From a virus, in the IMG/VR virus record IMGVR_UViG_3300009678_001574: a stretch of DNA of 64,000 bases, one strand, 5' to 3'. The notes under the pieces were generated by a model that worked only from the letters and a program-made list of their open reading frames with translations, ran no database searches and was not told where the DNA came from. Below are positions 2,470-39,507 of the stretch, piece after piece. Numbering within the stretch: the first letter of the stretch is position 1; each line of letters starts with the position of its first letter. The position numbers were made by a program, and so were the translations under genes.

Positions 2470-2684
2470 GCAAAGAACCGTATCTGATTTCTCCACAACT
2501 ATTAAAGAGTATCCAGATTGGCGATGCAATAGATCGAGAACTATTATTAGACTATACTAAAGGACTTATGCACGGAGCGAAGACGCCCGAGCTAAGAATC
2601 TATTGGACCATTATCAATAAGTGGGCCAACAAACATTTTATTACGAAGCATTTTACGGAAGAAGACGATGAAGCAATACCTTGA
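2466..2684 (+). CDS. Hypothetical protein
   Basis: 72-aa ORF overlapping both neighbours. Confidence 0.55.
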
Positions 2685-3486: not shown

Positions 3487-3487
3487 A

Positions 3488-3847
3488 ATGGAAGTAGTTG
3501 ATTTACAAGAAAAGATTACTGGACTAAAAGGTTATATATCAGGCCTAAAACAAATAATCAATGCGGCTGAAAAAACAATTACAACGGCAGAAATACAAAT
3601 TATGAGAATTTGTAAGCATGAAGTCGGAATGCAATATGTGGTAGGATACGAAAGTCCTATGGATCCAGAAGATGGTGCAGAGCAATTTCATTGTGAATAC
3701 TGTGGAGTTTGTAATGTGTTATTTGTTATAGAGCCATTTGGTTATTATGGCAAACCAAGACAAACAGAATATAAGACAGTGGGATTGAACGGCGGTTTGT
3801 TAGCGCCGTATTTTATTGATCGCAAAACGATGTGGAAAGGTAAATGA
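3488..3847 (+). CDS. Hypothetical protein (coiled coil plus CxxC)
   Basis: ORF between thyA and folA. Confidence 0.55.
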   Translation: MEVVDLQEKITGLKGYISGLKQIINAAEKTITTAEIQIMRICKHEVGMQYVVGYESPMDPEDGAEQFHCEYCGVCNVLFVIEPFGYYGKPRQTEYKTVGLNGGLLAPYFIDRKTMWKGK

Positions 3848-4332
3848 TATCAATGATAGCGGCGATGACTGATAATAGAGTCATCGGCAAGGATAATGAA
3901 TTACCCTGGCATGTACCCGAAGATCTAAAATGGTTTAAAGAACAAACGGCGGGCAAACCAGTATTAATGGGACGCCGAACGCACGAATCTATTGGCCGAG
4001 TGTTAAAGGGTAGAGACAACCTAGTTATTACAAATAACAAAAGCTATAAGCCGTTACACGAATCGGTTAAGGTGTATAATAAGTTAGATGATGCTATAAA
4101 ATTATACCAAGGCGAAAAAGAGCTCGTAGTAATAGGTGGGCAGCAGATATATGAGCAATGTCTCAAATATTCATCAAGAATATACCTCACAATATTTCAC
4201 ACTGATATAGAAGGCGACGCATTTTTCCCAGAAATAGATAATAAACAGTGGAAGTCGAACATGATTAAAGCTGTAACTGACAGCCCCATTGTTAATTTTA
4301 ATTACGAATTTTATATATTAGAAAGGGTTTGA
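3844..4332 (+). CDS. folA: Dihydrofolate reductase
   Basis: NRVIGKDNELPWHVPEDLKWFK, MGRRT.ESIGR.L..R, VIGG.QIY, GDAFFP. Confidence 0.96.
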   Translation: MISMIAAMTDNRVIGKDNELPWHVPEDLKWFKEQTAGKPVLMGRRTHESIGRVLKGRDNLVITNNKSYKPLHESVKVYNKLDDAIKLYQGEKELVVIGGQQIYEQCLKYSSRIYLTIFHTDIEGDAFFPEIDNKQWKSNMIKAVTDSPIVNFNYEFYILERV

Positions 4333-4832
4333 CAATGTTGAGTATTCTTGCTATATTACTAATGATAGGACTTTCTTTTTACGCGTGGTGTTATATCCAC
4401 GAAATGTCTCATATTCTGATGGCTAAAAAGCGAGTAGGGCTTGAGTGGTTTAAGTTAAAGCTTTATCCACATATGAACGAAGGATCATTACGATGGGCTG
4501 CGTGTGAATATCTACCTAAAAAGCAGCCTACGCCAGAAGATGTAGCACTTATTTCATTAGCGCCCAGAATACCAGATTTGCTTGCATGTTGGCTATTCAT
4601 ACTTACGCCGTTATTTTCGGGGTGGTTCGCAGTTGCGTGGTTTATATTCTTTGGCGCAGGAATTATAGACTTGATTAATGGATCTATTGGATTTTCGCCT
4701 AATTCTGATTTGCAGAAGGCGGTAGCAACTGGTACTACAAAAACAGACGCAAAGGGATTAAGAATATTGGGACTTGCCTTCGTTGTCGTATCTATTGGAT
4801 TAACTGTATTATCGTATTTTGTGAGGTTGTAA
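4329..4832 (+). CDS. Membrane zinc metallopeptidase, M50-like
   Basis: Transmembrane segments with HEMSH (HExxH) and ISLAP motif. Confidence 0.55.
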   Translation: MTMLSILAILLMIGLSFYAWCYIHEMSHILMAKKRVGLEWFKLKLYPHMNEGSLRWAACEYLPKKQPTPEDVALISLAPRIPDLLACWLFILTPLFSGWFAVAWFIFFGAGIIDLINGSIGFSPNSDLQKAVATGTTKTDAKGLRILGLAFVVVSIGLTVLSYFVRL

Positions 4833-5579
4833 ATGGGCTTATTTGATTTTTTCTCTAATTTAGTTAAGAAGCAAACGGCTACTGTTCCATATAAGCAGCA
4901 ACAGCCCATTGTAGTCATAGTGCCATCCACTACAGTAACTCAGCCAGTCGTTGCTGCGCCTTTATTAGATTTGGGTGCAGTAACTTATAAAGAATCTCCA
5001 AATAAATCTGATCGCAGAGATGAAGTTCGGGGTATAGTATTACATCACACAGGGCCCGGATCCTTCAACGGTATAGTAAATTGGTTGATAGATCCCGCCG
5101 CCAAAGCATCAGCGCATTACGTGTTGGGTGTTAAAGGTGAATTAACGCAATTGGTTAATACCAGTCGAAATGCATGGCACGCTGGTAAAAGTAAGGCCAC
5201 GTTAGACGGTGCTGTGAGAGACGACCTAAATCACTGCACTATAGGCATTGAAATATGTAATGCTGGTGTATTACAAAAGGGCGAAGACGGCAAGTTTTAT
5301 TACGAAGCTGGCCGCGAAATGAAAGAGTGGAAAGGCGAGACGCCCGTAGAAGGATCGATAACATACCCAAGCGGACATACTGTTTCGGGTTATTATGTTC
5401 CGTATCCCAAAGTACAAGTCGACAAATTGGTGGAGTTATGTAAAGCTCTTGTTGCTAAATATCCACAGATAGGCAAAGAAGACATGCTAACTCACTACGC
5501 AATCGCTACTCCAGAAGGACGAAAGAATGATCCCTTTGGATTAGATATCCCGGCCGTCATTAAGGCGGTATTCGGATAA
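4833..5579 (+). CDS. N-acetylmuramoyl-L-alanine amidase (Amidase_2), probable endolysin
   Basis: IVLHHT, ASAHYV, AWHAGKS, N..TIGIEI, THYAIA...RKNDP. Confidence 0.9.
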   Translation: MGLFDFFSNLVKKQTATVPYKQQQPIVVIVPSTTVTQPVVAAPLLDLGAVTYKESPNKSDRRDEVRGIVLHHTGPGSFNGIVNWLIDPAAKASAHYVLGVKGELTQLVNTSRNAWHAGKSKATLDGAVRDDLNHCTIGIEICNAGVLQKGEDGKFYYEAGREMKEWKGETPVEGSITYPSGHTVSGYYVPYPKVQVDKLVELCKALVAKYPQIGKEDMLTHYAIATPEGRKNDPFGLDIPAVIKAVFG

Positions 5580-5619
5580 GGAGAGAGGAGAAATGTTTAA
5601 TTAGGTTAAGGGAGTTCGT

Positions 5620-6132
5620 ATGCAAAATGCATTGTTATTAGATAGAAATTATATGGCAATATCAGTAGTACCGTGGCAGAGAGCAATCAAGCTTACGGTA
5701 AAAGGTAAGGCAGAAGTAGTAAGTGAGGGTCAGTCTGAAGTTACCAGCGGTTCCGGTAAGCGTTTCAGAATACCTTCTATTATAAGACTATTGACTGTTG
5801 TGCCTTTTAGAGCATATAATGGACGACTCAGATTTAATCGTAAGAATGTACTGATTAGAGATGGATTTGAGTGTCAATATTGTAGTAAGCACTTAGGAAA
5901 GCTATCAGGGACAATTGATCATATCATTCCCCGATCGCGCGGTGGAGCAAGCGATTATTTAAATTGTATTGCGTGCTGCAAAGAGTGTAATAACATAAAG
6001 GGTGATAGAACTCCAGAAGAGGCAAAGTTTAAGCTCAAGAAGGCGCCTAAAAAGCCATCCTTCTTAACTTTATACAAGCACTATATGAAGAATTCACCCC
6101 AAGAATGGTCAGATTATATCATAGGATTATAA
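5620..6132 (+). CDS. HNH endonuclease
   Basis: NVLIRDGFECQYC, TIDHIIPRSRGG, NCIACCKECNNIKG. Confidence 0.9.
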   Translation: MQNALLLDRNYMAISVVPWQRAIKLTVKGKAEVVSEGQSEVTSGSGKRFRIPSIIRLLTVVPFRAYNGRLRFNRKNVLIRDGFECQYCSKHLGKLSGTIDHIIPRSRGGASDYLNCIACCKECNNIKGDRTPEEAKFKLKKAPKKPSFLTLYKHYMKNSPQEWSDYIIGL

Positions 6133-6136
6133 CATA

Positions 6137-6334
6137 ATGAAAATAACTTTTGAAGATGGCAGTTTTATTATGTTTGACATAACTAATAATTTTGATCAAC
6201 TAAACCTAATTATGTGTGGGCTTCAGGGCAGCAACAAGCTCACGATGTCATCTTCGAAACTCAACAGGGAACAGGTAGAGCAGGTAGTCAAGTTCTTGGA
6301 AAGCTGGCTTCAGCAACCATCAACTAATACTTAA
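6137..6334 (+). CDS. Hypothetical protein
   Basis: 65-aa ORF. Confidence 0.5.
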   Translation: MKITFEDGSFIMFDITNNFDQLNLIMCGLQGSNKLTMSSSKLNREQVEQVVKFLESWLQQPSTNT

Positions 6335-6420
6335 TTTTCTGTCCCCCTGCGGTGTATAATAAAAATGTACCAGGATAAGCTGGCACAGTAGTAGACAATT
6401 TTTATAAGGAGAAAGAAAAA

Positions 6421-6621
6421 ATGTCAACATCAAGAAACACCCGTCGACAGGGTTCAATTTGGTCGCGTGAAGAAGTTCGTACACTACGTAAGGTATTTGG
6501 CAACAGCCCAAATGTCAAAGTAGCAACCCTTCTACAACGTTCAGCAAAAGCGGTAGAACGCAAGGCTTCAAAGTTGGGCCTTCAGAAGACTCAAAAGTAT
6601 TTACGTACTTTAGGTCGGTAA
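6421..6621 (+). CDS. Small basic Myb/SANT-like HTH protein
   Basis: WSREEVRTLRK...VA.LL.RS..AVERKASKLGL; AAGGAG RBS. Confidence 0.6.
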   Translation: MSTSRNTRRQGSIWSREEVRTLRKVFGNSPNVKVATLLQRSAKAVERKASKLGLQKTQKYLRTLGR

Positions 6622-6632
6622 AACCACTAAAT

Positions 6633-6666
6633 AAAGGCCGCCCCATTCAGGGCGGCCTTTTACTTT
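6633..6666 (+). terminator. Intrinsic terminator
   Basis: aaaggccgccc-cattca-gggcggccttt hairpin with T tail. Confidence 0.8.
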
Positions 6667-6697
6667 CGCACTTAACAATTAAGACAAGAGAACACAC

Positions 6698-7762
6698 ATG
6701 AGTAAGTTAGAAAATGCACCATATGCCTTTACCTACGATGATTTCTTTTTAGCACCGGTGCATTCAAGTGTTAGATCACGTAAAGACCCCGACGTTTCCG
6801 TCGCACTTCCCGGATTACAATTAGACATACCGATACTTTCTTCCCCAATGAATACTATTACGGAAGAAGAGATGACACGGTGTATGCGCCAACAAGGCGC
6901 TGGGGCTGTGTTGCACCGTTACTTGTCCATCGAAGACCAGGTAGCTAAGTGTCGCAACCTACAGGACGTGTTAGCGGCTGAAGGTTCCAAGGCTGCGTTT
7001 TTCGTAGCGATAGGCGCTACGGGCGACTTCTTAGAACGAGCCCAAGAGCTTACAAAGGTGGGCGTTAATAACTTCTGTATAGACGTGGCAAATGGACACA
7101 ACCAGAACTGCATCGATGCCACCACGGTTATCCGGTCCAAGTTGCCCAGGTCTAAGATTATGGCTGGCAACGTTTGTACGTACGACGGCGCTGTGCGGTT
7201 AGCTAGCGCCGGGGCCACGAGTATACGCGTAGGCATCGGTCCCGGAAGCATGTGCACCACACGTATAGTCACGGGCCATGGCATTCCTCAACTTACGGCT
7301 CTAGAGGACTGTGCTAAGATACGGAACATGGGTTTCGAAAACGTCGCGCTGATAGCAGACGGTGGCATACGAAATTCAGGCGACCTGGTAAAGTCCCTTG
7401 CTATAGGTGCCGATGCTGTGATTTTAGGAAGTCTGCTTGCTGGGACTAAAGAAACGCCCGGTGAATTTATAGAAGAAGGTGGCCGCTTGTATAAGTATTA
7501 TGCAGGTATGGCCTCCGAACATGGTCGAGCCTCTTGGTTTGACCGTGGCAAGACAAGCTTCATTCCGGAAGGTGTATCGACCAAAGTTCCGTTTGAAGGC
7601 AAAGCGGCTTATAAAGTGGTAGAAAACTTAATAGGCGGATTAAGAAGCGGGATGTCTTACGCTAATGCAACCAGTATCCAAGAATTAAGAAATAACGCAA
7701 AGTGGATGCGCGTGACAGCCGCAGGTTACCAAGAAGGTACCCCGCACGGAAAAAGGGGCTGA
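6698..7762 (+). CDS. guaB: IMP dehydrogenase / GMP reductase family enzyme (no CBS domains)
   Basis: [26 protein letters not shown] catalytic Cys loop, IADGGIR.SGD..K.LA.GAD, GMAS; IMPDH vs GMPR not resolved. Confidence 0.85.
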
Positions 7763-7765
7763 AAA

Positions 7766-8218
7766 ATGAGTTTGTTATACATAGGCGTTAGAGTTGAAAT
7801 TTCAAATAGAAGTTCAAAAATTAAAGGAATAAAAGAAAGTTACTTTAAGAATTATAACACCGAAAATATTTTTGATTACCACGAAAATGGCAAAATAACT
7901 GTAGAACGAACTCAAGAGATGCTCATAGTTCGTGGCAAGACTGAAGACAAATTTACGACTGGGTTAATAAACTTTTCGGTTATGAATCCTTTGAGCGACG
8001 ACCCAAAAGAAATTAGCCGGTTAGTTAAGATAGTGAACGTACTAGGCAACGACCGGCTAATAAAAGAGCGCGTTAAGACTTTCGTAGAAGGTAAATCAAT
8101 GATAAACAATTTAGCAGAGTTCAAAGGGCTGGTTAAAGTGTTTATGAATATTAACGAAATATCGCCCGGCTTCATAGAGAGTGCTTGGTACTACGCGCCC
8201 GAAGCTAAACTAAAATAA
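7766..8218 (+). CDS. Hypothetical protein
   Basis: 150-aa ORF. Confidence 0.55.
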   Translation: MSLLYIGVRVEISNRSSKIKGIKESYFKNYNTENIFDYHENGKITVERTQEMLIVRGKTEDKFTTGLINFSVMNPLSDDPKEISRLVKIVNVLGNDRLIKERVKTFVEGKSMINNLAEFKGLVKVFMNINEISPGFIESAWYYAPEAKLK

Positions 8219-8389
8219 GTGGATACGGAATTGAAACGTTTGTATCGATTAGCTCTAGCCGGCGTTTGGAAAGTAACCGTGACTGACCTAGGCGAATATT
8301 ACAGCGTACACTTCTTGTACGGCGACGAAGAAACCAAGTATTACAAACGCAGCAGAGACTATCCAAAGCCAGTGATTATTAAATGTTAA
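8219..8389 (+). CDS. Small protein of the hxxhYxxxL family (not in ORF track)
   Basis: Hand translation MDTELKRLYRLALAGVWKV... (56 aa, GTG start abutting upstream stop). Confidence 0.55.
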   Translation: MDTELKRLYRLALAGVWKVTVTDLGEYYSVHFLYGDEETKYYKRSRDYPKPVIIKC

Positions 8390-8649
8390 CCGATGATAAC
8401 GTAGATAGCGTAAAACGTTTGTACCAAGAGTTTTTAGTTAAAAAGTGGTCATGGAATCGAATAGACATAGACGATAGCCTCAATAGTATATGGATACAAA
8501 CTTGGCTTAAACAAGGTGGGCACACAGCAATAGGACAGCCTATAGTGCTGTGGAAAATTAATAACTACCCAAAGGGTTATGATCATGAGCTGGATAGTTT
8601 ATATGGTAAGATTAAAAAATGGTTCCTTGTACACTGGGATAACAAATAA
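8383..8649 (+). CDS. Small protein, probable hxxhYxxxL family member
   Basis: DSVKRLYQEFLVKKW. Confidence 0.5.
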   Translation: MLTDDNVDSVKRLYQEFLVKKWSWNRIDIDDSLNSIWIQTWLKQGGHTAIGQPIVLWKINNYPKGYDHELDSLYGKIKKWFLVHWDNK

Positions 8650-8872
8650 TTTAGAACGCCGCCTCAAGACCCACGCAGACGGTAAAGGTTCCAAGTACGT
8701 TCGCTCGCATTTACCATTCGAATTGGTGTATAAAGAAATAGTAGCTGATCAAAGTGCAGCTCTAATTCGTGAAGCCGAAATAAAAAGTAAAAATGTTAAG
8801 TATAAACAAGGGCTAATTAACAGCCCTCTTAATACAATGAAGGAGAAAGACAATGAAGAAATTTCCAATTGA
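8585..8872 (+). CDS. GIY-YIG nuclease (UPF0213/YhbQ-like)
   Basis: WIVYMVRLKNGSLYTGITNNLERRLKTH..GKGSKY. Confidence 0.9.
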   Translation: MSWIVYMVRLKNGSLYTGITNNLERRLKTHADGKGSKYVRSHLPFELVYKEIVADQSAALIREAEIKSKNVKYKQGLINSPLNTMKEKDNEEISN

Positions 8873-9152
8873 ACCGCTATTCGATCGCGTGTTCGTAAAG
8901 AAAGATAATGCCGAGAAAACCGAATCAGGTTTTCACTTGCCACAAACTGTTAAAGGCCGCGCCGTTACAGGCACGGTAGTAGCAGCAGGTCAAGGTCGTC
9001 TAAATACTGAAACGGGTAAGATTTTACCGCTGATGCTGAAGGCCGGAGATCGCGTATATGTAAAGGAATTTAGCGGCTATACTATTAGATACAACGACGA
9101 AGAAGTATTTGTATTCGCAGAGAATGAAATTATAGGAAAGCTGGTTGAGTAA
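8853..9152 (+). CDS. groES: Co-chaperonin GroES
   Basis: PLFDRVFV, TESGFHLP, GTVVAAGQG, LKAGDRV, E.EIIG. Confidence 0.92.
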   Translation: MKKFPIEPLFDRVFVKKDNAEKTESGFHLPQTVKGRAVTGTVVAAGQGRLNTETGKILPLMLKAGDRVYVKEFSGYTIRYNDEEVFVFAENEIIGKLVE

Positions 9153-9620
9153 ATGATTAGGTTAACCGTCGAGTTAGTACCAGAAACGTGCTGGTATTCT
9201 AACGTCCGCAGCAATGTCTCAAAAGAAGATTGGGATAAACTTCGTAAGGCTGTGTATGTCAAGGCGGGATATGTGTGCGAAATATGTGGTGGTAAAGGCT
9301 CTAAGTGGCCTGTAGAATGCCATGAAGTTTGGCACTACAACGACGACGAGCATATTCAAACTTTAGAAAGAATGATAGCTTTGTGTCCAAGTTGCCACGA
9401 AGTTAAACACATAGGCTTTGCTAACGTTCGCGGTCGCTATGGCCGCGCGTTAAATCATTTAGCTTACGTAAACGGTTGGACTCCAGAGCAAGCCGAAGAA
9501 TACATAGCAACGCAATTTATATTGTGGAAAGAACGCTCTAAGCATACTTGGCAATTAAACATAGAATGCTTGGGTGACTACACAGGTATGAAGGACGGTA
9601 AGAATGAAGACGATAAATAA
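9153..9620 (+). CDS. HNH endonuclease
   Basis: ELVP..CW..NVR, CEICGG, VECHEVW, LCPSCHEVKH. Confidence 0.8.
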   Translation: MIRLTVELVPETCWYSNVRSNVSKEDWDKLRKAVYVKAGYVCEICGGKGSKWPVECHEVWHYNDDEHIQTLERMIALCPSCHEVKHIGFANVRGRYGRALNHLAYVNGWTPEQAEEYIATQFILWKERSKHTWQLNIECLGDYTGMKDGKNEDDK

Positions 9621-10798
9621 GAGCAAAAGTAAGGGCAAAAAGAAAAAGGCAAAGATAGATGCGGCCTACTTAGAGAAAGAGGCTAAGAAGTTATTTGATG
9701 AGCAATTCGATGAAGATACTGTACCCGTAGATATAGGCGATATAGTAATTTTTCTAGGTGAACTTACTGCTTACTTAAAAAGCAAGGAAGACGACGATGA
9801 GTGATATGTACGCAAAACTTAAAGAGCAAGCGCGAGAAAGCCAGAAGCGTTGGGATAAAATCGAAAGTATCATTAGCCATATGAAACAACGCAACAAAGA
9901 TGGCGAAGACCTATGGGAAGATGAAATCATAGAGTGTCTAGAGCTATTAATGTTAAACCTTCGTCCTGCTTCGAACGTAGAAGCTGAATTATCCAATCTT
10001 GAAAACAGTTTGTTTAATTTAGAGAAAACTTTTGGTAAGGTTAAGTAATGAGCAAATTTGGCATAACCAATTTGTTCCCCAATTTTAACTCTCGTGATTT
10101 ATCAAAAAAAGAATTGGAACAAATAATTAAGGAAGCTGTCGCGCGAGAACATCCTATGCGTTCTGTTAAGGAAGTCATATATAACAAGGATGGCGTAGAA
10201 GTTACTTTGGATAGCGGAGAAGTAATAGAAGTAGAAATAGATTGGCAAGAATTTGTGTTGAGGTAGCTATGACTGATTTTGGCAAAATAATGCGTCGCGG
10301 CAAACGAAGATTCAACATCAAGCAAAATGCCCCCATATCAAAGTGGGATCGTTGTGAGGCTTGCGATGTAAGAATCGAAGTATTTCCTTACAACGATGAG
10401 AAAGGTGAAGTGTGGTTGTTATGCGCAGAATGCACAAATTTGTTTGTGAAAGATGAGGAGAAATGAGAACAATTAATTCAAATCAAAATGAACTGTTTTC
10501 CGATACAAACGACAGCTCTATGACCGTTGCAATAGTAATGGATACAGACCGACAGCCTTGTTGGTATGTACAAGTAGAGAGGGCCGAGGAACAAAAAGAT
10601 TATTCGTGGAGAGTGGGAGTGAAAGGCAGCACTCATACTGAAGAACACGAGTTTAAATTTTCCGAAATTGGTAAGTCTAATGATGCGGAGACATGGAATT
10701 TAGTAAGCAGTCCAAATTTTCCCTTTAAGCTATTAGAGAAGTTTAAGGTCGGAGGGAAAAAAGCAGTTAAGGACTGGTTCAAAAATGGGTGTCCCTAG
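9604..10798 (+). CDS. Run of five small hypothetical ORFs (9604-9804, 9797-10048, 10048-10266, 10269-10466, 10463-10798)
   Basis: Overlapping start/stop junctions; no recognisable family. Confidence 0.5.
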
Positions 10799-11081
10799 GA
10801 TAGCATTAACACTATCTAGTATAATATTAAAGGCAATAGATATAATAACTACCTATTTGTTTGTTGACAAGATGGGTAGCATGGCTGAAGCAAATCCTAT
10901 AGTTCGAGAATCAATTAACTATTTTGGATTAACACCAGCGCTAGGTTTAAATTTCGCTTATTCGGTATTAGTTATAATACTGGCACACAGGCTAAAATTA
11001 AAAAGAGCACAGTGGGGAGTGGCAATTATCTTGCTGCTCGTATGTATAAATAATATCACGCAGATGATATTATTCTATTAG
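10785..11081 (+). CDS. Membrane protein, DUF5658-like
   Basis: DIITTY.....G..EANP motif between hydrophobic helices. Confidence 0.5.
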   Translation: MGVPRIALTLSSIILKAIDIITTYLFVDKMGSMAEANPIVRESINYFGLTPALGLNFAYSVLVIILAHRLKLKRAQWGVAIILLLVCINNITQMILFY

Positions 11082-11090
11082 GAGTAGATT

Positions 11091-11480
11091 ATGAAAAGAA
11101 TTCTTAGCACATTAGGTCTGATATTTTTAATTAGTTGCACGGCGTCGGCTGGTGAAAAATCGCAAGTAGAAAAGGATAGTCTAGCTAAACTCAAAACCTT
11201 TGAAGACAACATGGTGCAGATAACAGCACAACAAACCGTTGGCAGGGATGTTAAACTTGAAGTTCTTGAACGCGGCTTCTTTGATAATCATCTATTGGCT
11301 GTAGTGCATTTTCATTTTGTAGAAAAGCCATCAGAAGCAAATCCACAGGCAATGTCAGGACACATATTTTTTATCTTAGGTAGAATGAAGACGACTGAAG
11401 AATGGGTGCCAATGAATAACTTTAGTCGATTAGACGCGCCACCAGATGCTCCGAGTGGAGGAGAGGGAGAAAAGCTTTAA
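11091..11480 (+). CDS. Secreted protein / lipoprotein
   Basis: MKR-hydrophobic-LISC signal peptide. Confidence 0.55.
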   Translation: MKRILSTLGLIFLISCTASAGEKSQVEKDSLAKLKTFEDNMVQITAQQTVGRDVKLEVLERGFFDNHLLAVVHFHFVEKPSEANPQAMSGHIFFILGRMKTTEEWVPMNNFSRLDAPPDAPSGGEGEKL

Positions 11481-11797
11481 TGGCTAACTTCGACGAAATA
11501 CTTACTAAAGGCAAGGGCAAAGTCAAAGGCTCTGGCGGAACTAAAACTAAAAAAGACCAATGGAAAGAACATATTAGTTTGCTCATAACCATTATGACCA
11601 AACTCAATGGTATGTATGGTGCCGATGACAAGCATCATTTTCTAGTAGAACAAGCAAAATGCGGGAAGTGCAACAAGGTAACGTATCTGATTGCTATCAG
11701 GGATATTGAAAACAATAAACAGGTAATCAGATTTCATAATTCTTCTTGGAAGGTGATTAGCAAAGACACCTATCACTGTGATGTGTGCAAGAAGTAA
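11480..11797 (+). CDS. Hypothetical zinc-ribbon protein
   Basis: CGKC and CDVC pairs. Confidence 0.5.
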   Translation: MANFDEILTKGKGKVKGSGGTKTKKDQWKEHISLLITIMTKLNGMYGADDKHHFLVEQAKCGKCNKVTYLIAIRDIENNKQVIRFHNSSWKVISKDTYHCDVCKK

Positions 11798-11807
11798 TGA
11801 GGTTAAA

Positions 11808-12905
11808 GTGAATACTGTATTGGTAGACTTACAGTTAGGCGATTGTGGGAAAGGAAAGATAGCAGATCATTTAATGGAAGAACATGACATATGCGTTAGA
11901 TACTCTGGTGGGCCTAACACCGGAACAACCGTATGGACGAATGGAATTAAATATAAATTACATCATCTCCCTGTTGGACTCTTACGAAACAAGCCGAGCT
12001 ATATAGCACAAACTTGTCTAGTGAATCCTGCCAAGTTGATGAAAGAAATAATTGAATTAAAAGAATTGGGCTTTGATGTGGATAAGAATTTGAAGATTTC
12101 TCCACACTGTCACGTAATTACACAAGAACATATAGAGCGTGATATAGCTAATGAAACGAGCGGCTTAAGTTCTGGCGGCGTTGGTTCGACAAAGCAAGGT
12201 ATATCACCTTGTTCCCAAGACAAATACGCACGCAAGGGAATTCGTTTAGTAGAGCACGGCGGCTTTGAAAAATACTTGGCCGATGTACCACTTGATTTGA
12301 ACCATGCCATCAAACGCGGTAAGAGTATTTTATTTCAAAGCTCACAAGGTACGATGTTGGATATAGACCATGGTAATTATCCGTTTGTTTCTACAACCTC
12401 TAATATTGCCGGTGCAGCAGCTATGGCATGTGGCATAGGCCCACAATATATAAATAAGGTTATTGGTGTGTTTAAGCCCTATCTAACTTATGTTGGTGTG
12501 GGTGAATTCCCAACTGAAATAGCTGATGAGCAAGTTAATGCAACAATAGCAGAACGAGGCTATGAGTATGGAACTACCACAGGCCGTCGGCGTCGTATCG
12601 GTTGGTTAGATTTACCAGCGCTTGCTTATGCCTGTATGATTAACGGAGTACAAGAATTGGCTGTTACCAAGTCTGATGTACTAGAAGATATGCCAGTTCA
12701 ATATAGTGATCGTTGTTTGTTAGAAAATGGCGCATCCATTTATCTGCCATTTGACCATAAATATAAGGCTTGTTTAAAGAATGCTGATAACGTTAGAGAC
12801 CTATTGTATATTGTTACGGAAGACCTCAAGCGTATATACGACTTGGGTATTAGATTAAAATATATTTCCACAGGTAAGAATAGGGAAGAGATGAGGATAC
12901 TATGA
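11808..12905 (+). CDS. purA: Adenylosuccinate synthetase (short form)
   Basis: QLGDCGKGK, R.SGGPNTG.T, G.GSTKQGI, QGTMLDIDHG.YPFV, YGTTTGR.RRIGWLD; GTG start with GAGG RBS. Confidence 0.92.
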   Translation: MNTVLVDLQLGDCGKGKIADHLMEEHDICVRYSGGPNTGTTVWTNGIKYKLHHLPVGLLRNKPSYIAQTCLVNPAKLMKEIIELKELGFDVDKNLKISPHCHVITQEHIERDIANETSGLSSGGVGSTKQGISPCSQDKYARKGIRLVEHGGFEKYLADVPLDLNHAIKRGKSILFQSSQGTMLDIDHGNYPFVSTTSNIAGAAAMACGIGPQYINKVIGVFKPYLTYVGVGEFPTEIADEQVNATIAERGYEYGTTTGRRRRIGWLDLPALAYACMINGVQELAVTKSDVLEDMPVQYSDRCLLENGASIYLPFDHKYKACLKNADNVRDLLYIVTEDLKRIYDLGIRLKYISTGKNREEMRIL

Positions 12906-19398: not shown

Positions 19399-19435
19399 AC
19401 ACTTATACAACTGCTATATAAGCAATTATCCACCG

Positions 19436-19460
19436 AGGCCCTTTTTAGGGCCTTTTTTAT
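19436..19460 (+). terminator. Intrinsic terminator closing the AT-rich region
   Basis: aggccc-ttttta-gggcct followed by ttttt. Confidence 0.75.
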
Positions 19461-19741: not shown

Positions 19742-19771
19742 TTGACAACGCACCGCGTCATGCGGCAAAAT
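19742..19771 (+). promoter_or_regulatory. Sigma70-like promoter P1 with palindrome in spacer
   Basis: TTGACA-ACGCACCGCGTCATGCGG(18)-CAAAAT. Confidence 0.6.
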
Positions 19772-20232: not shown

Positions 20233-20303
20233 GGCCGAAACCTAGGGCGCGCTAGTACAGGCGCCCGATGGTCTACGGGTATGGTGCCCGTACTGAGGAG
20301 GCC
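20233..20303 (+). ncRNA. Hammerhead ribozyme (type II, open stem II); predicted cut after 20273
   Basis: GGCC-GAAAC ... GUC / UACGGG-7nt-CCCGUA (stem I) / CUGAGGA-GGCC; complete CUGANGA, GAAA and GUC core. Confidence 0.9.
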
Positions 20304-20306
20304 GTC

Positions 20307-20546
20307 ATGGAAGGTTTGCACGTCGAGTTGCGCCGTCTGCGCATGAAGCCAGCGCCCATGCCCGTGAGTCCGCGTGAGGCTGTCGAGCCCACGCCTACGC
20401 CTGCCGCCGTCAAGGTGGTCAAGGTGTTCAACTCGGGTAGCGCCGAGGAGCGGAAGTTTGCCGAGAACATGGCGGTTATCGCCACGGCCTACCGCAACGG
20501 GCTCATCACGGAAGCCAAGGCCCAGGAGCTCGCGGCCAGACTGTAG
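20307..20546 (+). CDS. Early protein B
   Basis: GC-rich codons; RBS GAGGAG lies in the hammerhead core. Confidence 0.6.
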   Translation: MEGLHVELRRLRMKPAPMPVSPREAVEPTPTPAAVKVVKVFNSGSAEERKFAENMAVIATAYRNGLITEAKAQELAARL

Positions 20547-20580
20547 GACACACATACACACACACCTATGCGTGTGTGTC

Positions 20581-20645
20581 GGGATGCAAGCTATCACCTC
20601 CGCGTGGTGCATCCTGGGCAGGCATGGTGCCTGGCTAACGATGGC
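20581..20645 (+). ncRNA. HDV-like ribozyme 1; predicted cut between 20580 and 20581
   Basis: P1 GGGAUGC/GCAUCCU (G1.U wobble), P2 GCUAUC/GAUGGC, P3 ACC/GGU, L3 UCCGCGU, P1.1 CC/GG, P4 CAGGCA/UGCCUG, J4/2 GCUAAC with catalytic C20635. Confidence 0.9.
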
Positions 20646-20659
20646 AGAAAGTCACGGTC

Positions 20660-20868: not shown

Positions 20869-21096
20869 TTGCACACTACGCAACGGTAGGACGGTAAGCA
20901 ATCTGCCTCCGCGTGGCACCGTCCGGGTAACGCTAAAGATTGCACAGTAGGCAAAGGTTGCATAGTACGCAACTCTTGCACACTGACACACACATACACA
21001 TGCACCTAGTTGCATAGTACGCAATCGTTGCGTACCCAGGACGAAGTGGCGTGCTCGCAGAAATTGCGTAGCCCGCAAACTTTGCATACCTGGAAA
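20869..21096. repeat. Array 2 of TTGC-N7-GCAA palindromes
   Basis: Perfect copies at 20869, 20940, 20958, 21010, 21064; imperfect or half sites at 20976, 21028, 21082. Confidence 0.9.
20889..20943 (+). ncRNA. HDV-like ribozyme 2 (minimal P4); predicted cut between 20888 and 20889
   Basis: P1 GGACGGU/ACCGUCC, P2 GCAAUCU/AGAUUGC, P3 GCC/GGC, L3 UCCGCGU, P1.1 CC/GG, J4/2 GCUAA with C20933. Confidence 0.85.
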
Positions 21097-21105
21097 GTGT
21101 GTGTG

Positions 21106-21180
21106 ACGCGGTGCAGCAAAATTTTGACGCGGTGCGTCGGTCGATTTTTGTTGACAACGCGGTGCGTCAAGCGGCAAAAT
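21106..21180 (+). promoter_or_regulatory. Sigma70-like promoter P3 with three ACGC-N3-GCG operator-like sites
   Basis: TTGACA(21151)-ACGCGGTGCGTCAAGCGG(18)-CAAAAT; sites at 21106, 21127 and 21157. Confidence 0.65.
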
Positions 21181-21233: not shown

Positions 21234-21437
21234 ATGACACTGACACCGGCTTATGGTCGGGACTACAAGAGCAAGGCAGAGGTCGAGGCAGCCTGGGACG
21301 GCGGTAAGGATTTCCAGATTGCCAGCGTGGGGCCGTGGATGGGCTCCTACGTGACCAAGCGGGAGCTGGCGGGTAACGAGAAGGAAGTAAGCATCCGTTA
21401 CGCCAAGCTCTCGAAGGTGGTAGTCCTGAAGGTGTGA
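21234..21437 (+). CDS. Early protein D
   Basis: MTLTPAYGRDYKSKAEV...GKDF; GAAAGGA RBS; GC-rich codons. Confidence 0.75.
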   Translation: MTLTPAYGRDYKSKAEVEAAWDGGKDFQIASVGPWMGSYVTKRELAGNEKEVSIRYAKLSKVVVLKV

Positions 21438-21462
21438 ACGCAGGGCCGGCTAGTACAGCGGC

Positions 21463-21549
21463 CCTAGTCTAAAGCAGCCGGCAGTAGTTAGGCCGCCAGT
21501 CCAAAGCCTGGGAAAGCTCCTAACGGAGTTCAATGCTGATGGGACCTAG
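21463..21549 (+). ncRNA. Twister ribozyme 1; predicted cut 21470/21471
   Basis: U^AA-AGC-A-GC, P3 CGGC/GCCG, P4 CCAG/CUGG, L4 UCCAAAGC, P5, then GCU-GA-UGGG; P2 AGC/GCU and T2 UCCA/UGGG covary relative to other copies. Confidence 0.85.
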
Positions 21550-22155
21550 TAGTGAGGCTTAGTGAGTAGGTAAGGGCGTAGGTAGTTACTGCCACGTTCG
21601 AGACTCAGGCGAAAGTCAGCCAGGTCGAAGGCGTAGCATATACCGACGATAACCTCCAAGGGGCTAAGTAAGCGAACGGCGGTGTTGGCAGCGTGAGCCG
21701 TAATCATGCTGTAGTCTGGTAAGCGGGACTTTAACTCGGCTAGGTGGTGACTCTCACTCGTGTTGGTAGCCACGTTACGGTTGCCCGGTGACTAGGACTC
21801 GCATGGGAATCAGCCCTGCCTAGACAACTTCACAGAGCTTCGGCTCTTGGATTCTATCAGCTTGCGCTTCTGGTAAGGCATATAGCTTTACTCGAAGGCG
21901 TGGTTAGTGGGCTGATAGTCTTACGCTCTCGCAGTTAAAGAGAGCACGCACATGACCACACTCCTCGTTAGGCTTAGATTATGCTAAGCCACGAAAAACT
22001 CGCTTGGTGAGTGGGCCTATTTGGCTGACACCACAAGCCTGCGAGCGGAGTAGTGGTGGCGTGTTTTCGCCAAGCCTAACGAGCGCTTTAGGGGCCGCGC
22101 AGTTCAACCGCGCAATGGTCCCAGAGTTGTGGGTTACCTTGGTGCAAGAAAACCC
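21546..22155 (+). ncRNA. Candidate large structured ncRNA between twisters 1 and 2
   Basis: No convincing long ORF; long-range helices 21574-82/21920-28, 21854-61/21911-18, 21964-75/22072-83; UUCG hairpin 21834-47. Confidence 0.55.
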
Positions 22156-22220
22156 TCGTAATGCGGCAAGCGTATGCTTACGGTCACAAGCCCGTGTAAA
22201 CGCAGAGTGAGAAAGACGAG
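22155..22220 (+). ncRNA. Twister ribozyme 2; predicted cut 22159/22160
   Basis: U^AAUGCGGC, P3 AAGC/GCUU, P4 ACGG/CCGU, L4 UCACAAGC, GCA-GA-GUGA (T2 UCAC/GUGA). Confidence 0.92.
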
Positions 22221-22222
22221 TC

Positions 22223-22435
22223 ATGGATTACTCGTATCTGAAGCATTTGTCCGATGCTCAGTTGCGTACACTCAAGGTCCGGTACGCAATGGCAAAGGGC
22301 AACAGTTGGGAACACAAGCTCTTTTGCGCCGTGGATAGAGTGCTTACCGACCGCGAAGGCGTAACGCACTTCAAGACCGGGCGCATGGGAGACTGCCTGC
22401 ACATGGACCCACTCATGAACCCGAAAGGAATCTGA
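22223..22435 (+). CDS. Early protein E
   Basis: 70-aa ORF directly after twister 2. Confidence 0.6.
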   Translation: MDYSYLKHLSDAQLRTLKVRYAMAKGNSWEHKLFCAVDRVLTDREGVTHFKTGRMGDCLHMDPLMNPKGI

Positions 22436-22438
22436 CCG

Positions 22439-22882
22439 ATGAGCACACAGGAACCCAAAGACAAACCCGGAGTCGTCAACGGCTCCTTCGTCCGCAAAGA
22501 CTTCTACCTCTCACCGCCCGTCAAGGGAGCGCCGGTGGAAGCGTGGGAAGCCTGGCAGAAAGCGGACGACTTGCTTGCCGCCAACGCCAAGCGGAAGCAC
22601 ACCAAGAGCCTCAAGCACGAAGAGGTGCCTGAGTTCCTCCAGCCCAAGGTGCTTAGCAAGGTTGGCGGCGTCTACCGGCAGTCGGCGATGGTGGGCTTCA
22701 TCGGGGACGGAGATACCGCCCGAGTGGAAGCGGCCGTGGATGCCGAGCAGGGCAAGGTGCTGGCGCTCAACTCCTTCCGTCATGGTGGGCGTGGGCAGCA
22801 GACCGCTAGTCGCTCTGGTTCGGCCAAGCGTGCAGCTCGACGGGCAGCGAAGGAAGCCCGCCGCAAGAATACTCGGCACTAA
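22439..22882 (+). CDS. Early protein F (basic C-terminal tail)
   Basis: GC-rich codon usage. Confidence 0.7.
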   Translation: MSTQEPKDKPGVVNGSFVRKDFYLSPPVKGAPVEAWEAWQKADDLLAANAKRKHTKSLKHEEVPEFLQPKVLSKVGGVYRQSAMVGFIGDGDTARVEAAVDAEQGKVLALNSFRHGGRGQQTASRSGSAKRAARRAAKEARRKNTRH

Positions 22883-22901
22883 CACACAAGGGCGCTCACC
22901 C

Positions 22902-22970
22902 GCCCGCTAATGCAGCCTGGAGCAATCCCGCTCTAGCCAGTCACAAGCCTGGATAAATGCAGAGTGGCAT
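22902..22970 (+). ncRNA. Twister ribozyme 3; predicted cut 22908/22909
   Basis: U^AAUGCAGC, P3 CUGGAGC/GCUCUAG, P4 CCAG/CUGG, L4 UCACAAGC, GCA-GA-GUGG. Confidence 0.92.
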
Positions 22971-23040
22971 GTAGGTGGTAGGCACACATATACACACACA
23001 CCTACATACACATACAGTGTGCCAAGAAAGGGTTAAGTAC

Positions 23041-23328
23041 ATGACTGCTACCGAATTTCTCAAGAGCAAGAACGTTCCCTTCGATGGCTTGGATGCGGGC
23101 CAGTGCCGCACCATCGCCAAGGCCTACGGCTGGGCTGCTCCGAAGGCGGGCGTCAGCGTGGTGAGCTACACGCCGACCCAGAGCAAGAAGGGTCCGGGCC
23201 TCTACCTCAAGGTGGAGATCGAGGGAGCGCGTGAGGGCATGTTCCGCCTCTGCGACGGCAACGAGCTCACCCCGGCGGCCCGTGAGGTCATCGCCACCAT
23301 CGGCAACGACTGCGCCGACCTGCTGTAA
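23041..23328 (+). CDS. Early protein G
   Basis: ATG at 23041; GC-rich codons. Confidence 0.7.
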   Translation: MTATEFLKSKNVPFDGLDAGQCRTIAKAYGWAAPKAGVSVVSYTPTQSKKGPGLYLKVEIEGAREGMFRLCDGNELTPAAREVIATIGNDCADLL

Positions 23329-23356
23329 GACAAAGGCACCTGGGCAAGTGTAGAAA

Positions 23357-23420
23357 CTGCCCTGTTAATGCGGCCGGGATAGCCCGCAGGTCACAAGCCC
23401 TGGTAAACGCAGAGTGGCAC
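23357..23420 (+). ncRNA. Twister ribozyme 4; predicted cut 23366/23367
   Basis: U^AAUGCGGC, P3 CGGG/CCCG, P4 CAGG/CCUG, L4 UCACAAGC, GCA-GA-GUGG. Confidence 0.92.
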
Positions 23421-23438
23421 CTCAAACCGGGAGTGAGC

Positions 23439-23789
23439 ATGGGAAGCAGCAACCACAAAGGCATGGACACGTACAACCGCATCATCACCGACGCGCGAGC
23501 CACTGGCAAGCCTATCGGTCCGCAGTTCCACAAGTTCGACTTCCAGCGCAAGATATGGGAGAAGATGAACCTCACCCAGCCGGAAGCGAAGGTGCTCACC
23601 CAGACCCGTACCGCCCAAGCCGTCGTGACCAAAGACCAGACCCGAGAGGCCATCAAGGCCAAGCTCACGGTCAAGGTCACAGCGCCACAGCCTCAGTCCC
23701 TCCGCGAGAAGTACCAGGCTGAGCAACTCAAGAAAATCGCGGACGGCTACAAGGTCGAAGAAGGCATCAAGTACGTCAGCAAAGAGTAG
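23439..23789 (+). CDS. Early protein H
   Basis: GGAG RBS; GC-rich codons. Confidence 0.7.
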   Translation: MGSSNHKGMDTYNRIITDARATGKPIGPQFHKFDFQRKIWEKMNLTQPEAKVLTQTRTAQAVVTKDQTREAIKAKLTVKVTAPQPQSLREKYQAEQLKKIADGYKVEEGIKYVSKE

Positions 23790-23975
23790 TCCCACCCACA
23801 CGGAAGGAAAGGACATGCTGCGTAAAATTTAGCGCCAGTGGCTAAGGCGCGGTATAAGTGCCCACCTACTCCCTTGCGCCTGGACTTGGGAATCAGTAGT
23901 TAAAGCAGGCTGGATACACGGGAGCTACTCATGCTCTGCTCGTGACCGTGTATCGAGATATTGTAGGTAGAGCAA

Positions 23976-24038
23976 TGTTGTTAATGCCACCTGCATAGTG
24001 CAGCCGGTTCCAAGTCCGGAGAAGGCAGAGGAACAACA
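23976..24038 (+). ncRNA. Twister ribozyme 5; predicted cut 23982/23983
   Basis: P1 UGUUG/CAACA, U^AA-UGCC-AC, P3 CUGCA/UGCAG, P4 CCGG/CCGG, L4 UUCCAAGU; T1 AC/GU and T2 UUCC/GGAA covary. Confidence 0.92.
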
Positions 24039-24051
24039 CAAGGAGAAGCCA

Positions 24052-24213
24052 ATGCTCAAGCACAGCCTCGGTGACAAGCTCCGCCCGTTCATCCGTGAAA
24101 CCGTCAAGGCCAACGTGGAGAAGGCCAACCCGCATCTCACCAGCAACCCCAAGCTCCTCGACAACGTGACCCGCTCCATCATCACCAAGGGCCTCGCTCC
24201 TCTGTACCTGTAG
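24052..24213 (+). CDS. Early protein I (53 aa)
   Basis: AGGAG RBS right after twister 5; GC-rich codons. Confidence 0.7.
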   Translation: MLKHSLGDKLRPFIRETVKANVEKANPHLTSNPKLLDNVTRSIITKGLAPLYL

Positions 24214-24248
24214 CTCTCCCGCCCTCTATTGGACTCAGAGGCATGTGA

Positions 24249-24323
24249 GTCCTTAATGCGGCTAGGCACGGTCAAAGCCTAGGAGTCCCAAGCCTCCACA
24301 AACGCAGAGGGATACGAAAGGAC
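24249..24323 (+). ncRNA. Twister ribozyme 6; predicted cut 24254/24255
   Basis: U^AAUGCGGC, P3 UAGGC/GCCUA, P4 GGAG/CUCC, L4 UCCCAAGC, GCA-GA-GGGA. Confidence 0.92.
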
Positions 24324-24429
24324 GTGTATGTATCATAAGTAAGCGCCTAGAAAACTAGTAAGGGCGCAACGACAGAAATACTTACCTAGCACACTCACGT
24401 ATACCTAGGCAATGTGCGTGAGTGTGTGA

Positions 24430-24488
24430 CAGTGTAATGCGGCTATGAGTGGTCCCAAGCCCACCTGAGAAACGCAGAGGGAATCACA
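24430..24488 (+). ncRNA. Twister ribozyme 7 (no P3); predicted cut 24435/24436
   Basis: U^AAUGCGGC, P4 GUGG/CCAC, L4 UCCCAAGC, GCA-GA-GGGA. Confidence 0.9.
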
Positions 24489-24502
24489 ACAAAGGAGAAA
24501 GT

Positions 24503-24724
24503 ATGCTCAAGGTCATTGGTGCGATCACGTTGGTCGGTGGCTTGGCTTTCGGTGCGGCCTACTTCGGCGGGTACATCGACGGCAAGGCAGAGGTTCAGGT
24601 CACGGAGCAGGGTCGCAAGGCTGCTTCGGACACTCTTCGTAGCGCGCAGCAGGGCATCAGCAACGGGCTGAACCGTGCGGCTGATGCGGTCCACAGTGCC
24701 GAGGTTCCCAGCACCCAGCGGTAA
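24503..24724 (+). CDS. Early protein J, N-terminal membrane anchor
   Basis: AAAGGAG RBS; MLKVIGAITLVGGLAFGAAYFGG. Confidence 0.75.
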   Translation: MLKVIGAITLVGGLAFGAAYFGGYIDGKAEVQVTEQGRKAASDTLRSAQQGISNGLNRAADAVHSAEVPSTQR

Positions 24725-24914
24725 GTCGTAGGTTACATAGCTAATCATCCGTCGCCGAAAGGGAAAGGGAAAGGGAATAGTACACAAGCGCCAAGTTAAA
24801 GACGCTCTAAGGCGTAAGCCTACTTGAGCACACTAACAGTAACACGGCGCATCCTTTGAACGAGTAGGAACAGGTCGTTGATTAGCGTTTGATTAAAAGG
24901 CGGGTTAAATGTCC

Positions 24915-24995
24915 TGCCTCAATGCAGCTAGATGGATGCCCTATCTGTCTAACGGTCCCAAGCCCGTAAAGCGCAACGCAAATGCAGAGGGTACA
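24915..24995 (+). ncRNA. Twister ribozyme 8; predicted cut 24920/24921 (C^A)
   Basis: C^AAUGCAGC, P3, P4 ACGG/CCGU, L4 UCCCAAGC, small P5 GCG/CGC, GCA-GA-GGG. Confidence 0.85.
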
Positions 24996-25051: not shown

Positions 25052-25120
25052 GCAGTAGGTAGGAAACAAGGCGAGCGGCACGCAAGGTAAGTCCTGCTCC
25101 GCCTACCTACTGCTTTTTTC
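25052..25120 (+). terminator. Terminator closing the ribozyme-rich operon
   Basis: gcagtaggtagg / cctacctactgc 12-bp stem followed by tttttt. Confidence 0.75.
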
Positions 25121-39190: not shown

Positions 39191-39441
39191 TGCCAAGGCT
39201 GAAGAGATAAAACAATCCGAACCATTCTGGCTGCTGGTGCTTGACTTGTTCTGGTTGCTCTTCAAGCGAGCTATCTTTGCTGTAGCGTTCTTGGCAGTAG
39301 GTTATTACTACGGCTACTGTGATGGTTGGGATGACTTTCGTTTAGAATTGAAACAGATTCTACAAGGAAGAAAGCCTGCGCCTCATAGTGAGTACGAAGA
39401 AACTCTTTAGACACATTGGAGGTAAGTGTATAACTACCTCC

Positions 39442-39507
39442 TGCTTAAACTCACCGCATACATGGTGTATGCGCCAGTTCCAAGTCTGGGCAAAGAGCGA
39501 GGAAGCG
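39442..39507 (+). ncRNA. Twister ribozyme 9; predicted cut 39446/39447
   Basis: U^AA-ACUC-AC, 8-bp P3 CGCAUACA/UGUAUGCG, P4 CCAG/CUGG, L4 UUCCAAGU, GAGC-GA-GGAA; one A.C mismatch in P2. Confidence 0.8.

Follow-up and report, generated by a model that had tools for sequence, protein, structure and literature searches.

Our analysis of a 64,000-nucleotide (nt) stretch of viral DNA (IMG/VR virus record IMGVR_UViG_3300009678_001574; hereafter the window) revealed an array of eight predicted type-P1 twister ribozymes, Tw1 to Tw8, among small phage genes between positions 21466 and 24995. We consider it probable, at roughly three chances in four, that these self-cleaving ribozymes, whose fold has been kept by two-sided changes of paired bases, cut one early operon transcript into separate RNAs. 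What is new in this analysis is that the array was traced at collinear positions through at least six related metagenomic phages.

Identification of the twister ribozymes

Roth et al. 2014 are reported to have described the twister ribozyme class. When the window was scanned with Rfam at default settings, only two tRNAs and no twister were returned, because all eight copies score below the gathering score of the twister-P1 family RF03160, which is 67.2 bits. When matches below this score were taken by an E-value threshold, the RF03160 matches in the array were precisely the eight elements listed in the preliminary description of this DNA, all on the + strand, with scores of 37.9-59.2 bits and local E-values of 1e-5 to 7.5e-12. 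A ninth match, Tw9, was found on the + strand at 39442-39507 (48.3 bits). We also built a covariance model (R1) from an alignment (A1) of the nine window copies, and its run over the 64-kilobase (kb) window with filters off gave these nine twisters and nothing more. The placing of eight twisters by the preliminary description thus holds, since all are matched by an independent Rfam model on a single strand, with every defining element present and paired. By these marks the eight elements, or nine with the one at 39442-39507, are genuine type-P1 twister self-cleaving ribozymes.

Self-cleavage of the window copies is likely, because about 94% of natural twisters were active in a large-scale activity assay (PMC11662667) and because the twister parts found least tolerant of mutation in that work, the pseudoknots and the catalytic residues, are intact in all window copies by our parse. 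Imperfections of the P1 stem were reported as tolerated in the same study (PMC11662667).

Structure of the copies

Our segment parse showed that all copies have a cleavage site N^AA, a stem P2, a two-base strand of pseudoknot T1, a stem P4 of 4 base pairs (bp), a loop L4 of the form U-NNN-AA-G-C/U, and a GA followed by a three-base strand of pseudoknot T2. Seven copies have U^AA as their cleavage site and Tw8 has C^AA; the AA is invariant in the alignment. P2 consists of 4 bp, which pair 4/4 in Tw1-8 and 3/4 in Tw9. P4 pairs 4/4, with the same L4 form, in all 37 twisters of the lineage (this phage and six collinear relatives; 35 distinct sequences), which served as our wider alignment. The GA between the 3′ strands of P2 and T2 is invariant in 37 of 37; the role of its guanine as general base is taken from the literature, not from window data. 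P3 is optional, being missing in Tw7 and long in Tw8, and an extra hairpin is present between P4 and the 3′ strand of P2 in Tw1 (P5-like) and Tw8. The P1 stem is clear in Tw5 (GUUGU/ACAAC) and in Tw1. The shared catalytic skeleton given in the preliminary description (N^AA, NNNNAAGY, GA) was confirmed in all its parts, but more positions are invariant than it had claimed, namely the U of L4, the closing G-C pair of P4, the C-G pair of T1, and the AA before the 3′ strand of P2.

The copies, all on the + strand, are as follows. Tw1 (21466..21546; 37.9 bits; predicted cut 21470/21471) has P2 AGCA/UGCU, T1 GC/GC, P4 CCAG/CUGG and T2 CCA/UGG, and its orthologues are present in the related loci L122, L120, L118 and L113. 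Tw2 (22155..22213; 56.4 bits; cut 22159/22160) has P2 UGCG/CGCA, P4 ACGG/CCGU and T2 CAC/GUG, and the ATG at 22223 begins 9 nt past its end. Tw3 (22904..22970; 59.2 bits), with its cut at 22908/22909, 26 nt past the stop at 22882, has P2 UGCA/UGCA, P4 CCAG/CUGG and T2 CAC/GUG. Tw4 (23362..23420; 56.2 bits; cut 23366/23367) has P4 CAGG/CCUG and T2 CAC/GUG and stands 18 nt from the ATG at 23439. Tw5 (23978..24036; 54.3 bits; cut 23982/23983) has P2 UGCC/GGCA, T1 AC/GU, P4 CCGG/CCGG and T2 UCC/GGA, with 15 nt to the ATG at 24052. Tw6 (24250..24315; 48.7 bits; cut 24254/24255, 41 nt past the stop at 24213) has P4 GGAG/CUCC and T2 CCC/GGG, which is also the T2 of the P3-less Tw7 (24431..24485; 38.2 bits; cut 24435/24436; P4 GUGG/CCAC; 17 nt to the ATG at 24503) and of Tw8 (24916..24995; 38.2 bits; cut 24920/24921, at C^AA; P4 ACGG/CCGU). 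Tw9 (39442..39507; 62.7 bits with R1) lies 14 kb from the array and has T1 AC/GU and T2 UCC/GGA as in Tw5, P4 CCAG/CUGG, and one non-pair in P2; a 9-bp hairpin ends 5 nt 5′ of its cut.

The strings that the preliminary description had given were recovered by our parse for T2 (UCAC/GUGR in Tw2-4, UCCC/GGGA in Tw6 and Tw7, UUCC/GGAA in Tw5, UCCA/UGGG in Tw1), for T1 (GC/GC, against AC/GU in Tw5) and for P2 (UGCN/NGCA, against AGCA/UGCU in Tw1); the T2 string of Tw8 is UCCC/GGGU. Two of its details need correction. P4, of which seven of the eight helices were said to be different, occurs in six versions, with CCAG/CUGG in both Tw1 and Tw3 and ACGG/CCGU in both Tw2 and Tw8. T2 had been read with four bases, but the fourth pair (the U of L4 with the base after GGG) was only 80% paired among the 35 distinct sequences, with zero two-sided changes. 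We rejected this pair, and T2 is taken here as the 3-bp pseudoknot of the literature (PMC11662667).

Covariation and selection on the fold

Covariation was counted with the pseudoknots written into the alignment, and the controls were shuffled alignments (500 shuffles for the nine-copy count) and alignments in which the partners were slid by one to three columns. In the nine window copies, 96.8% of the cells were paired, against 72.2 ± 2.3% in the shuffled alignments, none of the 500 being as high. Two-sided changes were found at 15 of the 18 pairs, and the covariation score was 0.681, against 0.218 (shuffled) and 0.008-0.080 (slid). The 37 lineage twisters gave similar values: 97.5% of cells paired against 73.4% shuffled, and a score of 0.577, with 0.155 for the shuffled and no more than 0.066 for the slid controls.

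Both pseudoknots are 100% paired in the lineage, and four of their five positions show two or three pair types. One pair of T1 is G-C 29 times and A-U six times in the 35 distinct sequences, and the other (C-G) is invariant; T2 has three pair types per position and eight versions across the lineage. All four pairs of P2 show two-sided changes across the lineage. Among the core pairs (P2, T1, P4 and T2), 480 of 481 are Watson-Crick and none is G-U. Fifteen pair types vary between positional orthologues, each of them with a change on both sides. The Tw1 copies of the window and L120, which have identical flanks, P3 and P4, differ in three pairs, all compensated: P2.1 (A-U versus U-A) and the two T2 pairs T2.2 and T2.3 (CCA/UGG versus CGC/GCG).

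Selection for the twister fold in the array is strongly supported by these alignments, because covariation lies above the controls and the orthologue differences are two-sided. The preliminary description had claimed selection for active folds and had let this claim depend on a wider alignment. Its claim stands: paired cells and covariation are far above the shuffled and slid controls, all orthologue differences are compensated, and significant covariation is present across the 37 lineage twisters. P2, P4 and both pseudoknots are fully paired and covary.

The array in related phages

Upon a protein search with the 147-amino-acid (aa) open reading frame (ORF) inside the array (22439-22882), we found 15 metagenomic homologues with 42-97% identity, and through them reached the contigs of the relatives (loci labelled L followed by a number). 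Five of these loci, L118, L120, L122, L113 and L121, are collinear with 19-25 kb of the window at roughly 70-93% nucleotide identity, and model R1 found 2-7 twisters in each of them, at matching places; L116 and L123 have one twister each. ORFs of equal size were called at collinear places in the relatives, and the upstream genes common to the window and the relatives encode adenylosuccinate-synthetase-like, IMPDH/GMP-reductase-like and amidase proteins. No match was found upon megablast of window positions 18-30 kb against GenBank phages, only distant matches upon tblastn with the AAA ATPase of the window, and no relative upon a search for related loci in IMG/VR with the 147-aa protein.

The relatives are not identical in what they carry. 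L113 has a Tw7-like copy at the place of window Tw3, and the Tw2 site holds another twister version in L120 and L113 and a structurally different motif in L122. Because the relatives have different versions or kinds of element there, this comparison suggests that the presence of the element at the Tw2 site, not its sequence, is what is kept.

Origin of the copies

The preliminary description held that the copies were diversified by compensatory mutation rather than copied. This contrast is unsupported, as the T2 types stand in neighbour blocks and identical cores occur in unrelated phages. The T2 order along the array is CCA, CAC, CAC, CAC, UCC, CCC, CCC, CCC, and by our simple count both triples are contiguous in just 24 of 1120 distinct orders; because the types are contiguous, an old local duplication behind these blocks is suggested. 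Twisters in unrelated IMG/VR contigs, which have no other DNA similarity to the window, have the very same 34-nt cores as Tw2, Tw3 and Tw4, and array paralogues differ at 4-9 positions. The cores are short and leave little sequence space free, which makes them uninformative about descent. A nearest-neighbour analysis of duplication versus import was uninformative, given the identical cores in unrelated phages, and duplication of a ribozyme-plus-gene module was rejected, as the intervening ORFs are not paralogues.

Module exchange does occur on the evidence of the relatives, because the Tw2 site differs between close relatives and a Tw7-like copy stands at the Tw3 place in L113. Whether the whole array was assembled in this way, by exchange between phages of ready-made ribozyme modules (or ribozyme plus gene) and not by duplication in place with divergence, is another matter, and we hold it to be a real possibility with the odds somewhat against it. 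The identical cores in unrelated contigs, set beside paralogues 4-9 positions apart, speak for it, as do the three different elements at the Tw2 site among close relatives, the displaced Tw7-like copy, and the lack of paralogy among the genes between the ribozymes. Moreover, most of the two-sided changes (A-U to C-G, C-G to G-C, A-U to U-A) have no possible G-U intermediate, and G-U pairs number 0 of 481, so that patch replacement fits them equally as well as stepwise mutation. However, identical cores could arise by convergence in so small a space, the contiguous T2 blocks (24 of 1120 orders) point to local duplication, and the flanks of orthologues are conserved, with differences at paired positions only. 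The copies are old, and they may have arisen by local duplication with compensated drift or by module exchange between phages.

It was also suggested in the preliminary description that divergence limits deletion by recombination and cross-pairing of the copies. That selection drove the copies apart, so that neighbours neither recombine (deleting genes) nor cross-pair within the transcript, seems unlikely to us. As this explanation would have it, exact repeats between copies reach 12 nt at most, all neighbours have unlike P3 and P4, and the P1 flanks are all different; the 12-nt limit agrees with avoidance of recombination but is equally expected from age alone. The cross-pairing part fits poorly. 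The long-range strands of P2, T1 and T2 are the least diverse and are common to neighbours: among the eight copies P2 has four versions, with UGCG/CGCA in four copies, T1 has two, with GC/GC in 7/8, and T2 has four, being the same within the neighbours Tw2-4 and within Tw6-8. The greatest diversity is instead seen in P3 and P4, local hairpins with few chances of mispairing. In addition, twisters of unrelated phages are equally diverged, age and neutral compensated drift suffice to explain the differences, and the unrelated viral contig L007 keeps two identical twisters 732 nt apart.

Operon context and transcript processing

All copies are intergenic and in sense orientation, the eight twisters standing among seven small + strand ORFs (21234-21437, 22223-22435, 22439-22882, 23041-23328, 23439-23789, 24052-24213 and 24503-24724) that are not paralogues of each other. 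A PHROGs and Pfam search of ten small ORFs gave nothing usable, and the seven between the twisters matched no known family. PHROG and Pfam matches established the phage character of the window as a whole, and the array belongs to a large uncultured tailed phage. Four of the cuts lie 26-41 nt past the preceding stop codon, and the other four lie 193-722 nt past it, behind ORF-free stretches. A start codon follows 9-70 nt past the ribozyme end in five of the eight.

Upstream of the twister-bearing genes, a consensus scan gave a promoter-like site, TTGACA-18-CAAAAT, at 21151..21180 on the + strand (10 of 12 matches), which is a putative promoter; the same hexamer pair is also present at 19742-19771. 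Past the last twister we read from the sequence a long hairpin (GCAGUAGGUAGG...CCUACCUACUGC) followed by U6, at 25052..25119 on the + strand. This hairpin-U6 is likely the transcript end, and it was not reported by our terminator scan because its loop is long. Hairpins are also common directly before the cuts. Of the 37 lineage copies, 29 have a hairpin with 5 bp or more whose end lies no further than 6 nt 5′ of the cut; among random positions taken from these regions the share is 30%.

We propose that transcription beginning at the promoter-like site (21151) and ending with the hairpin-U6 (25052-25119) would give one RNA of roughly 4 kb, which would be cut at each N^AA during its synthesis. 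Three of the products (21471-22159, 24255-24435, and 24921 onward) would be free of ORFs, and the others would be mRNAs of one or two genes. All of them would start with a 5′-OH and a compact twister fold and would end in a 2′,3′-cyclic phosphate, usually 1-6 nt past a hairpin. Stability and translation of neighbouring cistrons would in this way be uncoupled, and both RNA ends would be shielded from end-dependent RNases. Transcript processing is the role proposed for clustered prophage hammerheads, which cleave polycistronic RNAs of about 2 kb in vitro (PMC3088659), and reviews have repeated the proposal (PMC6765202).

Some further features of the array were noted. The ORF-free spacers 21547-22154 and 24316-24430 (115 nt, between Tw6 and Tw7) have twister cuts on both sides, giving RNAs of 689 nt and 181 nt, and both are conserved in L122. 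Pre-cut hairpins in the window are found at 21426-21470, 22885-22908, 23337-23366, 24226-24254, 24893-24920 and 39413-39446, with the same places occupied in the relatives. Several of them share a module, ACACCUGGGCA.GUG...AAACUGCCC, with compensated variants, and this module may protect the 3′ end of the upstream product. CA-rich tracts (ACACACAUACACAC...) stand directly 5′ of several start codons (window 22980-23025; L116:1795-1825; L121:4190-4215; L123:1270-1300), and may be translation-enhancer-like leaders. Use of the next gene's Shine-Dalgarno sequence as a P1 strand was not seen; that sequence lies a few nucleotides past the ribozyme.

Several observations weigh against the processing of one transcript by active twisters. 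None of the eight copies reaches the gathering threshold of RF03160, because of their non-consensus but compensated T2 pairs, weak P1 and insertions. P1 is weak, irregular or displaced in several copies (Tw2, Tw6 and Tw8, with non-pair marks in the RF03160 alignment). Three of the eight ribozymes precede no ORF, so insulation of mRNAs is not the whole story. The model of a single transcript leans on a promoter scan whose number of matches equals the chance expectation, and the hairpin statistic treats orthologues as independent, so that its p = 2e-9 is overstated. Finally, the pre-cut hairpin module might serve in another way, as a promoter specific to the phage or as a site of protein binding.

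With promoters before the cuts, each ribozyme might trim the 5′ end of its own promoter-driven transcript, turning a 5′-triphosphate leader into a 5′-OH end, and no long transcript would be divided. The conserved module ACACCUGGGCA.GUG...AAACUGCCC directly 5′ of several cuts in the window and its relatives would suit such trimming, and so would Tw9, which stands alone 14 kb off. We nevertheless find it improbable, as 19-26 kb of the window has just two sigma-70-like sites (19742 and 21151), four of the cuts are only 26-41 nt past a stop codon with little room for a promoter, and the hairpin folds of the modules, whose changes are compensated, suit a structure at an RNA 3′ end. The engineered Tornado system joins 5′-OH and 2′,3′-cyclic phosphate ends into circular RNAs. 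That a host RtcB-type ligase circularises segments with such ends between two cuts here is very improbable, for although the two ORF-free segments 21471-22159 and 24255-24435 have twister cuts on both sides and circular or spliced products were raised as a possibility for clustered hammerheads by Perreault et al. (PMC3088659), these authors did not detect such products, no RtcB-like gene is evident among the large window ORFs, and no obvious pairing was found between the segment ends. Division of one operon transcript into separate RNAs is the reading that we prefer.

A motif of HDV-like topology at the Tw2 site

The motif that replaces Tw2 in L122 (L122:3151-3209) is conserved, and it is not present in the window. 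It was also found in L121 (4108-4190), L116 (1736-1808) and L123 (1206-1275), just upstream of the same pair of 70-aa and 147-aa genes; collinearity with the Tw2 site itself was shown for L122 only. A 14-base pattern scan of IMG/VR gave mostly chance matches, but four extra instances, in unrelated phages, passed a P1 filter (L225:4751-4810, L228:2618-2675, L134:2378-2435, and L193:1156-1215 on the minus strand). The motif consists of a 7-bp P1, a P2, a P3 of GCC/GGC with the loop UUGNCGU, an optional hairpin, and C-NAAU before P2′. Its P1 is 100% paired in the eight sequences, with two-sided changes at 6 of 7 pairs, a count biased by the four that were picked because P1 pairs.

Rfam searches with the motif, the models of hepatitis delta virus (HDV) ribozymes included, gave no family matches. 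The motif shares with the minimal HDV-like (theta) ribozymes of Caudoviricetes (PMC10879173) the nested order P1-P2-P3-P1′-(optional P4)-P2′, the 7-bp P1, the GCC/GGC P3, and, as in the J4/2 junction of HDV, a C and then (U/G/C)AAU ahead of P2′. It differs from them in its L3 (UUGNCGU), in the bases past P1′, which are CUU and not a G-rich P1.1 strand, in not standing beside a tRNA gene, and in matching no Rfam HDV model. By its topology the motif is a candidate self-cleaving element, and it may belong with the minimal HDV-like ribozymes of tailed phages (PMC10879173).

One operon site would then carry a P3-bearing twister, a P3-less twister or a motif of HDV-like topology, and we tentatively suggest, at slightly less than even odds, that putative cleavage by the motif makes this a case of selection on the cut itself and of an uncatalogued HDV-like sub-type. 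If the motif self-cleaves, selection acts on the cut and not on any one ribozyme, and the sub-type is found in the unrelated phages (L225, L228, L134 and L193) as well.

Wider window

The array block (about 58% GC) begins directly after a strong terminator (19435-19454), with which a block of about 38% GC comes to its end. Along the window, GC content is about 38-43% at 1-20 kb, rises abruptly to 58% at 20-24 kb, and then drops gradually, reaching 44% by 64 kb. The large ORFs of the window all lie on the + strand. In the same GC-rich block, upstream of the array, Rfam gave a weak type-II hammerhead match on the + strand at 20233-20310 (local E-value 0.043) and two weak HDV-like matches on the + strand at 20579-20648 and 20887-20964 (local E-values 0.048 and 0.008), all below the gathering scores; these matches would be consistent with transcript processing. 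A nucleotide-metabolism cluster at 1837-12905 contains thymidylate kinase, thymidylate synthase, IMPDH/GMP-reductase-like and adenylosuccinate-synthetase-like genes, and for the last of these one may ask whether it has a PurZ-type role in base modification.

Comparison with known systems

The window copies share with the type-P1 twisters of RF03160 the N^AA site immediately 5′ of P2, a 4-bp P2, an optional P3, a P4 with the U-NNN-AA-G-Y loop, a topology open at P1, a 2-bp T1 between the bases that follow the 5′ strand of P2 and the final two of L4, a 3-bp T2 formed by positions 2-4 of L4 and the three bases after GA, and the GA after the 3′ strand of P2. They differ from the family in having T2 off the CCC/GGG consensus in 5/8 copies, a weak P1, scores below the gathering threshold, two copies with an extra hairpin between P4 and the 3′ strand of P2, and one copy cutting after C. 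Because the Rfam gathering threshold misses 8/8 copies here, phage twisters with compensated non-consensus T2 pairs are probably under-counted in annotation.

Twisters of this flavour are common in viral contigs, with at least 112 loci in our pattern scan. The IMG/VR contigs behind L007, L002, L038, L069, L037 and L039 have three or four same-strand twisters within 1-5 kb, which, as in the window, differ in T2 and P4 yet are fully paired. None of the clusters examined there has as many as the eight copies of the window, to which these contigs have no other DNA similarity.

Engineered insulators of the RiboJ type are synthetic, hammerhead-based elements placed between a promoter or upstream cistron and a ribosome-binding site. 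They share with the array a self-cleaving ribozyme a few nucleotides 5′ of the ribosome-binding site, the removal of upstream RNA, and a structured 5′-OH end. The arrangement in the window, in contrast, occurs in nature, is built of twisters and is repeated, with a putative effect on expression.

Ever since clusters of self-cleaving ribozymes were noticed in 2011-2015, their function in bacteria and phages has been a standing question. With eight twisters in one short operon, this locus is a compact natural test bed for it. Its relatives show which features are kept: all pseudoknot pairs, the position with respect to stop and start codons, and the hairpin just before the cut. They also show what is free to change: the sequence of the helices and, at one site, even which version or kind of element is present.

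The nearest known arrangement is that of the clustered prophage hammerheads, which stand on either side of one gene or of a short block of genes (Perreault et al. 2011, PMC3088659). In both arrangements the coding strand carries several self-cleaving ribozymes, interspersed among small phage genes whose identity varies, and for both the processing of long phage transcripts into gene-length RNAs has been proposed. The window differs in that the class is twister, that eight copies occur in 3.5 kb with weak HDV-like and hammerhead matches upstream, and that the array could be followed through collinear relatives with compensated changes between orthologues. The array is no new kind of element but a dense and well-conserved case of an arrangement known in phages since 2011.

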